From Spirochaetota bacterium (lineage in GTDB: Bacteria > Spirochaetota > Spirochaetia > CADAEX01): a stretch of DNA of 64,000 nucleotides. The position numbers are program-made. How positions within the stretch are numbered: the first letter of the stretch is position 1; each line of letters opens with the position of its first letter. The stretch is from NCBI GenBank assembly GCA_009786125.1, contig WQTU01000139.1, positions 8,483-72,482 of the forward strand, given 5' to 3'. Below are positions 3,001 to 9,000 of the stretch, piece after piece.

Positions 3001-6000
3001 AAATCCAGTACTGTTTTTTTGTTTAACATTCCGCAAATTAGTGTTTCCAGTTGACCAATGAGCGCAGATGCTTCATTCTTACCATCAGAAGTTTTCCACG
3101 CCATAAAACGGCTGAATCCGGCAGAGATCGTACCTGCTTTTGCTTCAAGCCCATCTGAAATAATTAAAAACCCATTGTACGTAAAAAGAGAAGGGATTGC
3201 TTGTTTATATGTTTCCAATTGAAGAAATGCCGAACGCACAGTAGCATTTTCATCAATTGGGTTTTTAAGCTCCATTACAGTAAGAGGCAAACCATTGATG
3301 AATAAAATTACATCGGGCCGTTTGTTAACATGATTTTCTATAATTGTGTATTGATTTAAAACAACAAAATCATTATTTTCCGGCTCATCAAAATCCATGA
3401 GCCAAACCAAATCGCCTCGGCTGCTTCCGGCTTTTTGATAAGTAACGCTAATGCCCTCGGTTAACATCCTGTGGAAAACTTCGTTATTTGCAACCAAATC
3501 AATCGAGTTAAGACGCTGAATCTGTTTTATTGCATCTTCCTGCGCATCTGTTGGTATTGTTGGATTTATTCTAGAAACAGCGGCTTTTAATTTTTCAAGC
3601 AAGATAATTTCTTCAAAGGAAGAACGCTGCGCTGTTTCGCTGTCCGGAGCAATATCAGGACCATATATATACTCATAGCCCTGTTTTTCGAGAAGCCTTA
3701 TCGCGAATTCTTCAATACCGGATTCAGTGATTTTATTCATTAAAAATTATACCAACTCGAAGCGCAATTTTTTTCCTAAAACATGAGCTGCTTTTTTTAA
3801 GGTTAAAAGAGTAATCGACTCATTTTCAGGATCAAGAAGCCGGTTTACTGCAGCACGAGAAGTATCAAGCCGCGCTGCTAAATCGGTCTTTGATAAATGC
3901 TCTTTTTTAATTGCCTCATGCAATTGATATGCAATAATTTTTTTTATAGCTCCGGCTTCTACTTCCTCGCTGATATTTTCTTTAGCCAGAAAGTCATCAA
4001 ATGAACTGCCGATAGTTTTATTTTTCATCTTTATACTCCTCCTGAAAATACTAAATCCCGCCGTTTTTTCGCAAGATCTAAGTCTTGTTTTGGTGTTTTT
4101 TGACTCTTTTTTATGATGCTGTGCAATAAAATCATATATTTTTTCCAAAATGTAAAAAAAATCCGGCATATCCCATCACGTAAATCAACTCTGACTTCCC
4201 ATAAATCTTTATCCAGTTTAGTAACTCGCGGATATCCAATTGGCCATAAATACTCAACCGCTTTGATCTCTTCTCCTATGATCTTTTTTTCCTCTTGTGT
4301 CCGATGCTTGAGCCAATCCCTTACCGGCTCATTTCCTGCCGAAGTTTTAAAGAAATACACTGTTAATGCTTTTTCTGCGCTTTTATAAGGCATATTTAAA
4401 GCGTATCAAAATTGATACAACATGTCAAGCGATTATTTATAATCCCATATAAAACCTTTCACTGCGGATTTATAAGTTCCTTATCTGACATGGAAAAATC
4501 TTCGGCGAATTTTACTGTTGCTTTTCCCTTTAAAGTACCCAGTTCTCTTTTTTTGATTTTTTCCAGCAAGATTATTTCTTCAAAAGAAGAATGCTACGGT
4601 GTTTCGCTGTCCGAAGCAATGTCGGGACTATATATGTACTAGTTCGATGGCAAAGGTTTCTATGAGGGGTGGTGGTCATTGTTCAAATATTATGACATAA
4701 GTTCAAAATTTATGATATGAGGAATAATATGTAATTCCGTCTATTACTGATCTTTCGGTGTCTTCAACAACAAATCCAACACTATATTTTGCCCTTGTTA
4801 TAGCTACATAAAACTTGGAACGACTTGTGTCTTTCAACTCTGATTGTTTGTTTTTTAACCACTTAAGCATTGGGGCAGTTGGGTATATAAGAATTCTATC
4901 AAAAGAAAGCCCCTTTGATTCCCCAAAGTTCATTACACGATGATTTTCACTTACAGTAGTTCTTCTACTGTCGCGTAATTGCAACGGTTCGTATTGATGT
5001 AAATATTTTTCGACATCTTTCTTTTTTACAAAAAATATTCCATCGTGGTCGGTTGTTCTATTATTTCCCGAAGTTGTTTTCTGCATTGTAGGAAACAGTT
5101 TATTTGACAATTCACAGATTGGTTTTATACATCTGTAATTAACTATGAGCATGGTATCATCTTTTGTTAACTTTTTTTCCTTATCTGTAAAAAAGTTAAC
5201 AATTTTGGCTTTTTTGAATTGTTTGTTTTTTGGTGCGCTATTGGTAGAATAAGTTCCTTGCCGAGGATCACCAACTAACAAAACATTTGAATTGCAATCA
5301 AACAACAATTTTAATAACTCTAAATCGTAACCCGCTAAATCTTGTACTTCGTCAATAAAAACATGTGCATATATTCTTGAAATTCTATCAATAACACTTC
5401 CTTTTGTTTTTTCATTGCAGCGAAATACAAATTTTGAAAGTTTGTCAGAGTAGATTTTTAGTTGATTAGAGAAATAATGTTTTTCAAAATCTTTTTCTTC
5501 CCCAAAATAGATAGGTTGCCCATTTCTCACATAACCTTTTATGCCTGACTGGCTATTTACTAAAATAAGCCCTTTGATTTTCTTATCAAGCAAAATTCCC
5601 TGAAATGGTCTTGCACCATGTTTCAATAGAAATGAAAACCAAGTTTGAACAGTAATATTTTCAGGAATACATTTGTTTAATTCAATAATTTTCGTTTTAA
5701 TTTCAGCCTCATTTGCTTGCGTATAAGTTGTAATCAGCACTTTTTCGTCTTTTATATTTAGTGCTTCATTTACAATGAGACTGGTTTTACCTGAACCCGC
5801 TGCTGCGATTATGAGTTTGTTATTTTTCATTGCACCAATTGATTACATTGTCAATATAGGCAGGATATCTTATTTGCTTGTCTGAATTGAATATTTTTAA
5901 AGCAGAATTTGTTTTATTGTCTTGCATATATTTGGAAATCTTATCTGCAGTACTGTATTTGCTGTTTTGAATTTCTAAAACCTCACATAAAACAGCAAGT

Positions 6001-9000
6001 TTTTTATTGTTTGCATCAACAATTTGAGGCTCTAATGTATCCAGACTGTTGCGATTATCGGCGAAAATTTTGACTACTACAGAATCTTTATATAAGTCAT
6101 ATTTTTTCGTGATTTTGTTTTCGTAATCACCATCATTATCTGTAACTACCGCAACTTGTTTTTGAATTTTTTCCGCAATTTCCAAAAACCGTAAAAATGA
6201 TGTTCTAACCGAAATAACATCAACTCCGTCTTCTATTGGTAATTTCCCATTTTTTACTTGATACGCCTTTTGTACAATCAATTCATCTGAATCACCCTCT
6301 ACCAAGATTGCCTTTTTACATAAAATCAAGCGCAATGTATCATAACCTGATAATTTTTTGAAAAAATTAAAAGTATCATATGGCAAGTCATTTAGCTTGA
6401 TAGTTTGCTTATCATTAAGTAAAATTAAATTCTCTAATCCTAATTTGTTGGAAACAAAACTATTATGAGTAGAGATTAGTATTTGTTTATCGCTGTGGTC
6501 TTGGGTAATATCTTCTATCAATTGGTTAAGTTTTGTATGCGACAAATGGTTTTCGGGCTCTTCAAGCAAAATGATATTTGCTTCTTTTGCTTTTTTATGT
6601 CTTAATGCTAATTTCGTTTTGATTATACACTGCTCACCTTTACCAATATTCTGAAACGGAATTTCTTCTATACAAGTAATTAAACTATTTTCCCAAGCAT
6701 TTTTTGAAGATAGTTCAACCGATAATTCTACTTTTTTATCAGAGATTTTTGATGCATTTTTAATTTTTTCATTGATTGCTTGAATTGCCTCATGCTCAAC
6801 AAAAGTGTCTCTCATTTGTCGGTGGGCTTGTGAAACTTTTACAATTTCTTCTGATTCTAAAAAATCTTTCACTATGCGAGAAATGTAAATATCAGAACCA
6901 TTTTGTAGTTTATTGCTTGCAGAGTCAATCAAGGCAGACTTTATAGGGATTGTCCTAGTGGTAATATTTTCATCTCTCGCGAAACTTGACAATAAAACAT
7001 TATAGTATTCAATTGGAAGAGTTTTTATCCCGCCGATTTTTACTAACTCTTCATACTCCTTCTGATATTTTTCATCAAAAGCGATTTTCAATGAGATACC
7101 TGAAGATTTGGTCTTTTGACTATTGCCGTCTCCTTCAAACTCTGCTAAGTCTTCACCGTCCATATAAATTTCGATTAAAATATGTGGTAAAGATTTATTT
7201 TCTTTATCAGGTTCTAAACTCTGTATGTATTCTGCAACTACCTCATTATTAAATATATATTGAGTAAGTTCATTTTTTAGATATTTTGCGTTGTACAATC
7301 CTGTCAAAGCAAGGTGTATAGCTTCAATAATTGTAGATTTCCCTGATTCATTATTGCCAACAAGAATATTAACACCTTTATTCAAAACCAAATCAAAACT
7401 TTTGAAAATCTTGAAATTTTCAATATGTATTTTGTTAATATTCATGCTCCCACCCTCACTTCCCCACTCATAAGCTTAGGCAAGAGAGTATCGCGGAGTT
7501 TTTCGAGAGTGTGGATTTGTATATTATTGTGTTCTATTTTTTCAAAAATTGAATCTGTAATATTTTCAAATTTTTTCAAATACTCCTCTGGTGGCTTTAT
7601 CAAAGGTAAGTTGTTTAATACTTCAGTTGTCATGCTTGGCACAGCCGAGCCAACATTCATGGAAACTAAATCCAGGTTTTTTACAAAAAAATAAATAAAT
7701 TTGGCAATGTGTGGCTGTTTCATTATTGTATAAAACATGGTATCAACAGTCCAAAACGGTTTGTTTATATAAAAGACATTTCCAAGTGTTCCTTTTCTCG
7801 GTATCAAAACTGATTCTTTATTGTAAAGAGCAGTTTCAGCAAAACGCATAATCCCACCCGATCCATAAACAGGGATGTTGCCATCAAAAAGATGTTTGTG
7901 GTCTTTACCATATTTTATATCAACAAAATAACTGAGAGAAACTTCTCCCCAAACATCCTGCGCTTCTTCTACAAACCACTGGCGGAACAGGGTTTCTGCC
8001 ATGGCTTCAAGTGTTTTGTTCTGGCGATGCAAAAGGTCTATTTTGTCGTCTAAGTTGGAAAGCACCTCGGCAATGGCGCGTTGTTCGGGGAGAGGGGGAA
8101 GGAGGAAAGTATGATTTTTAACAACATCCATTTCCACGCGTTGACGACCAGAACTACCCGTCATTGCAAGAATAGCTACATCACGAAATTCCGGAGAAAT
8201 GGAAAAATAGTATAAATAATGTTTATCGCTTAAATCTGCTTTTTCTCTTAAAACTATATATTCTGTTGAGCCAAAACCTATTTCTCCTGAATCTAAAACA
8301 TCAACATAAGCGGTCTTACCATTTTCCAAGCAAGGAGTTATTCTAGCTATAATAGTATCACCATTTCTGAATTTCGTGCCCCCATTAAAAGGTTCAATAG
8401 AAAATCCAGAAACCTTTTTTGTAAACGGCTTTAAGCATTCCATAGCAATCTTTTTAGCTGCCAGACCTTTCGCTATGGACTCAGCTGGATTTATTAATGC
8501 AATATCCTCTAGTTTATATTCCTGCCACTCACTCATCACCACCGCCTCCTCCGGCTTTCAGCTTTTTTTGCATTTCGCGCAAAGCATCTAAATATGCTTT
8601 TTCTACATCAGTTAAATCATCCAAAAAAGCAATTTGCATATTTTGCACATTGCTTTTTCCGCCAAGTTTAATTGCGTCAACATTGCTGACACAATTTGGT
8701 ATCTGATTACTCATTTGTTAGCCCCCATCTCCGGCTTTTCCTTGTTTTTTCTTCCTCTTCTGCGTCTCTTCTGTCTTGGTCTCAAGTTCAATAAATCTAT
8801 CAAAATCACTTTTGAATAGTTTGTCCTGTACAATGCGATATTTTTCAAATTCGGTTTCTGCATGTTTTTGGGCAATTTCTGCGGAGACCTTTCCGGCATC
8901 ACTTAAAATTTCACGGTCTGTTGCCGCAATGAAGCGGTTAAGCCGGGTTTCCCAATCACTCATAGTCATGGGAATACGCCGAATAGCCATATCTTCTGCA

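Follow-up and report, generated by a model that had tools for sequence, protein, structure and literature searches.

A compact Gabija-type nuclease-helicase gene pair predicted as cargo of a Type I restriction-modification operon in a Spirochaetota genome

A stretch of 64,000 nucleotides from contig WQTU01000139.1 of a Spirochaetota bacterium (assembly GCA_009786125.1, positions 8,483 to 72,482 of the forward strand; in the following called the window) carries a pair of genes at positions 4703-7445, between hsdS and hsdR of a Type I restriction-modification (R-M) operon. A first-pass annotation had described this pair as an OLD nuclease followed by a UvrD-like helicase. The open reading frames (ORFs) were found at exactly these coordinates, and both are supported by Pfam and PADLOC matches. 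Judged from sequence comparison, the pair is with high probability an intact anti-phage module of the Gabija type (Class 2 OLD), which belongs to a compact subfamily and was acquired horizontally as cargo of a complete Type I R-M operon. As such it is an ordinary example of a widespread and catalogued Gabija family, and embedding in R-M operons is already documented.

Domains and profile matches of the two proteins

The first gene of the pair (gajA) encodes a protein of 541 amino acids (aa), which starts with an ABC ATPase (Walker A K36, Walker B E295/E296, H-loop H327), continues with a Toprim domain (E383, D387, D436, D438, E472) and ends in a predicted helical domain (K511). The motifs that the first-pass annotation had quoted, GNNESGKST (30-38), LLEEPENHL (293-301), VEGDSDE (382-388) and TDNDGD (435-440), are all present, and so are the core superfamily 1 (SF1) motifs of the partner. 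K36, E295/E296, H327, E383, D387, D436, D438, E472 and K511/T512 are invariant among 29 homologues and are present in the window copy. Pfam assigns OLD-like_TOPRIM, AAA_15, AAA_23, SMC_N and AAA_21 to this protein. The PADLOC GajA model PDLC00102 matches with 710 bits (E=2.9e-214) and aligns residues 1-537 with positions 1-531 of the 532 profile positions, i.e. from end to end. All 19 best PADLOC matches (19/19) are GajA models, including one full-length match on a 580-position GajA profile with 143 bits. The matches to PtuA, AriA, AbiLi and NsnB are confined to the ATPase head and do not exceed 55 bits. NCBIfam, lacking a specific model, gave sub-threshold partial matches only, and those to retron Eco8 and PtuA were likewise confined to the ATPase head with at most 55 bits.

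The second gene (gajB) encodes a 375-aa protein with the SF1 motifs I (AGSGKT, 11-16), Ia (TTYTQAN), II (DEVQD, 160-164), III (GDPRQ, 187-191), IV (NYR, 231-233), V (GESKGLSFD) and VI (VAITRA). K15/T16, D160/E161/Q163/D164, G187-Q191, R233 and motifs V and VI are invariant in diverged homologues and are present in the window copy. Pfam assigns UvrD-helicase, UvrD_C, AAA_19 and Viral_helicase1. The PADLOC GajB model PDLC00148 matches from end to end with 480 bits (E=1.3e-144; residues 3-361 on positions 2-359 of 369). For both proteins nearly all other strong PADLOC matches are GajA or GajB models. Matches of this strength lie far outside anything that chance would produce. The profiles therefore assign the pair to GajA/GajB, in line with the first-pass annotation, and proteins of retron, PARIS and Septu systems match the ATPase head only.

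AlphaFold2 was applied to both proteins with alignments of 20 and 25 rows, which were at least 67% identical. Both models are poor (mean predicted local distance difference test score, pLDDT, of 53 and 57). The confident part of the GajA model is the C-terminal region 370-541 (pLDDT 70-94), in which five helices follow the Toprim domain. A Foldseek search with the GajA model ranked GajA of Bacillus cereus first (E~1e-9), followed by OLD of Thermus scotoductus and retron Eco8. Superposition of the C-terminal region on the Class 2 OLD structures of Burkholderia pseudomallei and Xanthomonas campestris (6nk8, 6njw) gave target-normalised template modelling (TM) scores of 0.52-0.62 and root mean square deviations of 4-5.6 Å, the window domain being about 18 residues shorter. 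In Class 2 proteins the helical domain after Toprim is a five-helix bundle with a terminal amphipathic helix, and this domain carries a catalytic lysine (K562 in B. pseudomallei OLD), of which K511 may be the counterpart. For the helicase model, HelD was the best Foldseek match; this model is too poor for the ranking to be trusted any further than "SF1 helicase". The usable parts of the two models are the C-terminal region of GajA and the 2A region of GajB.

Size, pairing and distribution of the family

The first-pass annotation had considered the minimal helicase to be unusual. The database searches contradict this, as the short form is the norm of a very large subfamily with hidden Markov models (HMMs) of its own. 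Homologues of the helicase fall into more than 5,200 clusters at 90% identity, and the best 120 all have a length of 364-395 aa; for the nuclease more than 6,300 clusters were found, with full-length matches of 521-562 aa. A profile search of 1.84 billion representatives at 50% identity yielded 520 helicase clusters at E<=1e-30. The best 150 of these 520 clusters align from end to end, and nearly all of them have 347-410 aa.

We sampled 80 genomic loci from Bacteroidota, Proteobacteria, Firmicutes, Spirochaetota-like lineages, the Candidate Phyla Radiation (CPR) and the archaeon Methanococcoides, and limited the count of gene pairs to the 72 loci with enough upstream DNA. In 71 of these 72 the short helicase gene directly follows, or overlaps with, a GajA-like ORF (median 547 aa); gajA always precedes gajB, and the median gap is -8 nucleotides (nt). 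The statement that the gajA-gajB order fits Class 2 OLD/Gabija is hereby supported across the family, together with the end-to-end HMM matches. Among 66 intact genomic pairs the helicase has a median length of 375 aa (range 358-410). The single exception to pairing is locus L017 of Arachidicoccus rhizosphaerae, where an IS21 element is inserted between gajA and gajB. This genome has its own compact gajA and gajB (L017:5172-11056), which are convergent to hsdR and split by IS21 (istA with an rve domain, istB), and therefore represents a disrupted copy. Frameshifted copies of the family were found in L003, L043 and L050.

The compact family is present on 73 plasmids as well as on chromosomes, and in Bacteria, CPR and Archaea. 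Carriage by phages is rare, with two weak matches among 50,697 phage records and two loci among 2.9 million viral contigs. A phage origin was considered and rejected, as the family is hardly present on phages. No homologue was detected in Escherichia coli when a pair from an Enterobacter plasmid, whose helicase has 48% aa identity to that of the window, was compared by blastn to 5,426 complete E. coli genomes.

Since the GajB profile comprises only 369 positions and homologues have the same length, the short helicase has to be regarded as the normal form of a large subfamily and not as a truncation. This bears directly on the alternative of a decayed pair, carried along without function, whose helicase gene is a truncated pseudogene. 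With 494 aa, B. cereus GajB indeed exceeds the helicase by 119 aa, in line with the remark of the first-pass annotation that the latter is shorter than a typical GajB, and the base composition of the pair is foreign to the host. Against such decay, both ORFs are full length on the subfamily profiles (for the helicase over positions 2-359), every catalytic and family-invariant residue is present with no inactivating substitution, and hundreds of diverged homologues have the same length. Moreover, truly disrupted copies look different, as seen for the copy split by IS21 in L017 and for the frameshifted copies in L003, L043 and L050. A decayed remnant is thus extremely improbable.

Two further observations concern individual family members. 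A 602-aa representative (P0356) contains the compact helicase core only at residues 305-588, so that the core is probably fused to a further N-terminal region of about 300 aa. The window GajB has an exact match in a public protein (P0001, "MAG: Spirochaetes bacterium"; MAG, metagenome-assembled genome), and the best GajA match among those listed is 88% identical. In that Spirochaetes MAG, the GajA gene must have been called in another way, or its product lies concealed within a cluster.

Subdomains kept and lost in the helicase

In B. cereus GajB the subdomains 1A (1-72 and 156-222), 1B (73-155), 2A (223-313 and 417-494) and 2B (314-416) have been delimited (PMC10681800). The profile of the compact helicase family aligns to this protein in three colinear blocks, 4-48 to 12-61, 142-257 to 143-249, and 298-363 to 419-475. 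Motifs IV and V are separated by 41 profile positions compared to 170 residues in B. cereus GajB, so that about 130 residues are missing. The spacing between motifs Ia and II is about 94 positions compared to 82 in B. cereus GajB. The 1B-equivalent insert at about residues 49-141 (about 95 residues) is retained, and its conservation equals that of the motor core. A similar pattern was obtained with UvrD, to which the family profile aligns with positions 146-254 on 213-310 and 279-351 on 545-620, while UvrD residues 310-545 have no counterpart. In the AlphaFold model, which is moderately confident there, the 2A region 229-355 forms a single alpha/beta domain.

HelD and helicase IV are naturally 2B-less SF1 proteins. 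Profile positions 155-361 of the family are colinear with residues 541-758 of Bacillus subtilis HelD (6wvk_H), from motif II to the C-terminus.

According to these alignments and the moderately confident 2A region, GajB of the compact family has lost the 2B subdomain and kept the 1B-equivalent insert. The absence of 2B and of neighbouring loops accounts for the difference of 119 aa to B. cereus GajB. The proposal of the first-pass annotation that the helicase lacks most of 1B and 2B consequently holds for 2B, and does not hold for 1B, of which the insert between motifs Ia and II is kept. The window GajB departs from the four-subdomain 1A/1B/2A/2B architecture of the solved archetype, a feature which lies outside the operational definition of Gabija.

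Relationship to Bacillus cereus Gabija and to the OLD classes

The classes of OLD proteins are set by genetic context, and an adjacent UvrD-like helicase is the criterion for Class 2 (PMC10568477, PMC6755086). Because a UvrD-like helicase adjoins the nuclease and the classes are defined by gene context, the pair belongs to Class 2 OLD/Gabija by definition, as a remote branch. Class 1 genes stand alone as single genes with no conserved partner; here, the helicase partner is found in 71 of 72 loci. Retrons (Class 3) would have an adjacent reverse transcriptase (RT) together with an ncRNA, PARIS (Class 4) a separate Toprim protein AriB, and Septu an HNH partner, PtuB. No RT, AriB or HNH gene lies next to the pair, and no Rfam family was found in 1-14000 of the window.

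The reference set for CHARACTERISED Gabija consisted of B. cereus GajA and GajB, which have full-length matches in the PDB (8jq9_B, 8j4t_G) with no mismatch in the printed alignments. Using hhalign, the GajB family was aligned to B. cereus GajB with a probability of 98% (family positions 5-249 to 11-239, 27% identity) and the GajA family to B. cereus GajA with a probability of 75% (248-481 to 218-472, 21% identity). With the HMMER filters switched off, the family profiles matched B. cereus GajB with 34 bits and B. cereus GajA with 19 bits; these matches are colinear, weak and of high bias. An absence of homology to B. cereus GajA and GajB, as it appeared from the PDB searches with default settings, was overturned by the hhalign matches and the searches without filters.

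Several points weigh against assigning the pair to Gabija or against parts of this assignment. In the PDB searches with default settings (single sequence and profile, for the helicase up to E=10) B. cereus GajA and GajB were not listed at all. The nuclease matched PtuA, retron ATPases, Rad50/SMC heads and T. scotoductus Class 1 OLD, and the helicase matched UvrD, AddA, Rep, PcrA and HelD. The misses are attributed to HMMER filter artefacts on top of real remoteness, and the similarity to the characterised B. cereus proteins remains remote, as the scores of 19 bits for GajA and 34 bits for GajB illustrate. The nuclease profile is at least as close to Class 1 OLD of T. scotoductus (6P74, E=1e-9), which was the strongest OLD-family match in the filtered PDB search. 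Both AlphaFold models are of low overall confidence, and the loss of 2B is supported by the alignments and the moderately confident 2A region. Co-transcription with the hsd genes is deduced only from gene spacing, the promoter and terminator scan having been uninformative. Finally, no experimental test of a member of the compact subfamily was found in the searchable literature, and its function is read from homology and context.

Some of these points would fit a system distinct from Gabija, in which a Class 1-like OLD nuclease independently recruited a 2B-less SF1 ATPase of the HelD/helicase IV kind, resulting in a convergent architecture with a different mechanism (e.g. in oligomeric state, substrate or trigger). 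The nuclease length of 541 aa is near that of T. scotoductus OLD (528 aa) and below that of B. cereus GajA (578 aa), and for Class 2 proteins an additional length of about 50 aa has been stated (PMC10568477). T. scotoductus OLD is found by the nuclease profile at E=1e-9, B. cereus GajA by contrast with filters off only. UvrD, AddA, Rep, PcrA and HelD score above B. cereus GajB with the helicase profile, and HelD is the best structural match of the helicase model. Nevertheless, the gene context that defines Class 2 (PMC10568477; PMC6755086) is conserved in 71 of 72 loci, the best PADLOC matches of the nuclease are GajA models without exception and include the 580-position profile over its full length, and the C-terminal Toprim and helical region superposes on Class 2 structures. 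The helicase alignment to B. cereus GajB extends across 1A, 1B and motifs II-IV at 98% probability, and no weight can be given to the Foldseek ranking of so poor a helicase model. We consider independent recruitment to be quite unlikely; the question is partly a matter of definition.

Horizontal acquisition and the hsdS-hsdR interval

The two genes of the pair have a GC content of 30.2% and 31.6% (about 25% at third codon positions), compared to 37.7-41.7% for the hsd genes and 38.0% for the window. The closest homologues (84-88% identity) stem from Bacteroidales-type MAGs and not from spirochaetes. Near relatives (79-82% identity) adjoin integrase genes or follow a Type II R-M system that has AbiJ in its vicinity. 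When the flanks of five relatives were aligned, homology started at the gajA ATG and stopped at the gajB stop codon, and neither flanking repeats nor conserved flanks were detected in these upstream and downstream alignments. The lower GC content and the end of homology at the ORF ends identify the pair as a putative imported two-gene cassette. By this sequence evidence, it was probably acquired horizontally and is cargo in a variable slot between hsdS and hsdR.

Close linkage to R-M genes is a minority association in the family: about 6 of the 80 loci (about 8%) have hsd genes at a distance of up to 10 kb. One of these, L073 from Bacteroidetes HGW-17 (L073:44-7795), has the order hsdS-gajA-gajB-GmrSD-DUF6088/AbiEii-hsdR with a gap of 8 nt between hsdS and gajA. 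In L004 the order is hsdR-hsdM-hsdS-gajA-gajB with an overlap of 1 nt between hsdS and gajA, and in L048 a fused hsdM/S gene is followed by gajA. A Draconibacterium MAG (L007:2307-11122) shows the order hsdM-hsdS-DUF4917-RT (RVT_1)-gajA-gajB. The Type I R-M system of A. rhizosphaerae (L017:14294-17730, minus strand) has an hsdR closely related to that of the window (1787 bits) and PDC-M65A/B between hsdS and hsdR. The two proteins in this slot (392 and 752 aa) have no Pfam domains and match the PADLOC candidates PDC-M65A/B with 478 and 994 bits. Because this interval holds PDC-M65A/B in L017 and Gabija, GmrSD and AbiE in L073, it can be regarded as an exchangeable cargo slot.

As observations on the individual loci, L073 represents a second, independent compact Gabija pair together with a toxin-antitoxin (TA) module in the hsdS-hsdR slot, and the DUF4917 and RT genes of L007 may be a further embedded defence module.

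The translational coupling to hsdS had also been described as unusual in the first-pass annotation. This did not stand, since the junction recurs in L004 and L073 and embedding between hsdS and hsdR has already been described (PMC12255303; bioRxiv 10.1101/2024.01.29.577857). In enteropathogenic E. coli (EPEC), DarTG2 is located between hsdS and hsdR, and the site was suggested to be a recombination hotspot (PMC12255303). In a "guilt-by-embedding" survey of BREX, DISARM and Type I R-M loci, Ocr was suggested as a possible trigger of embedded Gabija, and PrrC was described as residing nearly always within Type I R-M loci (bioRxiv 10.1101/2024.01.29.577857).

These findings raise the alternative that the pair acts as a guard similar to PrrC in EcoprrI. 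It would then depend on the host Type I enzyme, be held inactive by HsdMSR or monitor it, and fire when an anti-restriction protein disables the complex. The location of the pair in the hsdS-hsdR interval and its overlap of 4 nt with hsdS would agree with this, as would the reuse of the slot in L073, the direct hsdS-gajA junction in L004, the proposal of Ocr, an inhibitor of Type I R-M, as trigger of embedded Gabija, and the nearly constant embedding of PrrC (bioRxiv 10.1101/2024.01.29.577857). However, about 92% of the family loci have no hsd neighbours, and the nearest relatives (79-82% identity) are found beside integrases or a Type II system. The homology of the cassette ends exactly at the ORF ends, so that nothing specific for R-M travels along with it. 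Besides, a trigger by anti-restriction proteins would need no physical coupling. An obligate guard function is therefore unlikely, and a Gabija-type module carried as cargo is preferred.

Organisation of the operon

The minus strand between 510 and 12068 is occupied by a tightly packed array of co-oriented genes in the order hsdM, AlbA_2-wHTH, RhuM, hsdS, gajA, gajB, higB, higA, hsdR (wHTH, winged helix-turn-helix). The features in the direction of transcription, all on the minus strand, are the following:

10527..12068, minus strand: hsdM, Type I methyltransferase subunit, first gene of the array (Pfam HsdM_N, N6_Mtase; PADLOC MTase_I 662 bits)
9817..10530, minus strand: gene for a SLFN/AlbA_2 and winged-HTH protein of 237 aa, 4-nt overlap with the hsdM stop (Pfam SLFN_AlbA_2, HTH_24; no PADLOC match)
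8718..9788, minus strand: RhuM-family gene between hsdM and hsdS, defence candidate PDC-S05 (Pfam Virulence_RhuM 362 bits; PADLOC PDC-S05 501 bits)
7442..8542, minus strand: hsdS, Type I specificity subunit with two target-recognition domains (Pfam Methylase_S in two stretches; PADLOC Specificity_I 284 bits)
5820..7445, minus strand: gajA-like gene, OLD-family nuclease of 541 aa, ATG start (ORF; PADLOC GajA; Pfam)
4703..5830, minus strand: gajB-like gene, SF1A (UvrD-like) ATPase/helicase of 375 aa, ATG start (ORF; PADLOC GajB; Pfam)
4394..4702, minus strand: spacer of 309 nt between gajB and the toxin gene (no Pfam match, no Rfam family, no convincing terminator)
4031..4393, minus strand: HigB/Gp49-like toxin gene, further cargo between gajB and hsdR (Pfam Gp49, PF05973, E=2e-17)
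3747..4031, minus strand: HTH (HigA-like) antitoxin gene, ends 6 nt before hsdR (Pfam HTH_3, HTH_37, HTH_26, weak)
510..3740, minus strand: hsdR, Type I restriction/translocase subunit of 1076 aa (Pfam HSDR_N, SWI2_SNF2, T1R_D3-like, T1RH-like_C; PADLOC REase_I 1291 bits)

The host Type I R-M system is complete, with hsdM, hsdS and hsdR all intact and co-oriented according to Pfam and PADLOC. As read from the sequence, hsdS ends with ...GGAGCATGA and includes the gajA ATG, resulting in a 4-nt overlap (ATGA), and gajA ends with ...AATGAAAAATAA and includes the gajB ATG, resulting in an 11-nt overlap. Both values are identical to those in the first-pass annotation. The antitoxin gene probably starts with MKNKTIG..., a choice of start codon by which it shares 1 nt with the toxin stop codon. 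The 309-nt spacer is the sole long non-coding gap within the hsdS-hsdR interval. A scan for promoters and terminators revealed fewer promoter-like sites than in shuffled controls and no terminator in the gaps, and is uninformative for a spirochaete. No tRNA gene was found in the window.

Inside the spacer a 36-aa ORF (MLEKIKKRELGTLKGKATVKFAEDFSMSDKELINPQ) is located at 4459-4569 on the minus strand, with stop codons just upstream closing its frame. It has no match in Pfam and Rfam scans and may be a remnant of earlier cargo. In the 237-aa SLFN/AlbA_2 and winged-HTH protein the match to HATPase_c_4 is only fragmentary, and this protein may be a shortened form of a usually longer one.

Proposed function and meaning

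By homology to the Gabija systems of B. cereus and P. aeruginosa, GajA is predicted to oligomerise via its ABC-ATPase/dimerisation region and to cut DNA with a two-metal Toprim site, and GajB is predicted to dock on GajA through the 1B-type insert. As an NTPase/translocase stimulated by DNA ends or ssDNA, GajB would license or regulate the cleavage of invading linear DNA. Both proteins would be needed for defence, and together they would destroy or block invading linear DNA. In B. cereus Gabija the contacts between GajA and GajB are made via the 1B domain, and both genes are required (PMC10781630). Gabija is characterised by a supramolecular complex with a GajA:GajB ratio of 4:4. The retention of 1B matters because the contacts in the solved complex run through it. 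B. cereus GajA is reported to be inhibited by nucleotides, and both genes to be needed (PMC8136825, PMC10781630), and Gabija of P. aeruginosa acts on linear DNA ends that are not protected by RecBCD (PMC12407980).

In analogy to Rep without 2B, in which autoinhibition is relieved and unwinding is hyperactive (PMC6158625), the 2B-less GajB may be a constitutively competent motor, controlled by GajA and not by rotation of 2B. Regulation by GajA is predicted because 2B is autoinhibitory in motors of the Rep/UvrD type. Literature searches for a short or 2B-less GajB returned nothing relevant.

The gene layout suggests that the pair is co-transcribed with the hsd genes, translationally coupled to hsdS and expressed together with the R-M system. 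It may then serve as a second layer, which would still act, or be triggered, once a phage has neutralised Type I restriction, e.g. by DNA mimics of the Ocr type. The locus as a whole could function as a layered island of Type I R-M, Gabija, a HigBA-like TA system and RhuM/PDC-S05.

To our knowledge, the structures and the biochemistry of Gabija have been worked out entirely on the B. cereus system, supplemented by genetics in P. aeruginosa PA14. In terms of annotation, this Spirochaetes MAG has a Type I R-M defence island that includes a standard Gabija system. A large and phylogenetically broad subfamily that carries a naturally 2B-less GajB has a bearing on the role of 2B in Gabija immunity. 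Very tentatively, and with more speaking for an ordinary Gabija, the compact clade (GajA of about 545 aa, 2B-less GajB of about 375 aa) might be a mechanistically distinct Gabija subtype, whose motor is controlled entirely by GajA and whose R-M-embedded copies come into action specifically as a backstop once Type I restriction has been neutralised. If this were true, rotation of 2B would be dispensable for Gabija immunity, or this clade would be activated or assembled in another way. Natural cases for the question of layered or anti-restriction-triggered defence are provided by the window, L073 and L004.

Comparison with known defence systems

Gabija of B. cereus VD045 (PDB 8SM3, 8J4T, 8JQ9, 8U7I) resembles the window pair in being a two-gene operon of nuclease and then helicase with overlapping ORFs. 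Both GajA proteins combine an ABC ATPase and a Toprim domain, which share their catalytic motifs, with a helical domain at the C-terminus that is predicted for the window protein. Both GajB proteins have an SF1A motor with a DExQD box and an insert of the 1B type; in the solved complex it is this subdomain that touches GajA (PMC10781630). Identity is only about 21-27% over the alignable parts. Compared to B. cereus GajA (578 aa) the window GajA is 37 aa shorter, with 8 residues fewer before Walker A, and compared to B. cereus GajB (494 aa) the window GajB is 119 aa shorter, without 2B (Cacc, residues 314-416) and neighbouring loops. The profile lengths of PADLOC PDLC00102 and PDLC00148 (532 and 369 positions) equal the lengths of the window proteins, so that there is no difference at the family level. 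The compact form is therefore already catalogued as Gabija among the PADLOC subfamily models; the catalogue entry carries no experimental or structural description.

Class 1 OLD proteins (P2 Old, T. scotoductus OLD, PDB 6P74) share the ABC-ATPase/Toprim architecture and a similar size (528 vs. 541 aa). They are encoded by stand-alone genes (PMC10568477), whereas a helicase partner is conserved here. Engineered Rep without 2B is likewise an SF1A motor lacking this subdomain, and is a hyperactive monomeric helicase that is poor at displacing proteins (PMC6158625); the analogy extends to regulation and does not imply homology of function. HelD differs by large N-terminal and clamp-arm domains and by binding to RNA polymerase, none of which is found in the window GajB.

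The systems known to be embedded in R-M loci, i.e. PrrC in EcoprrI, DarTG2 in EPEC and the "guilt-by-embedding" cassettes, occupy the same hsdS-hsdR slot with the same orientation and operon-like packing. PrrC is almost always embedded in R-M and is physically controlled by EcoprrI, whereas compact Gabija is embedded in about 8% of the loci sampled. In the window the cargo is a nuclease-motor pair, and neither a tRNA nuclease nor an ADP-ribosyltransferase.

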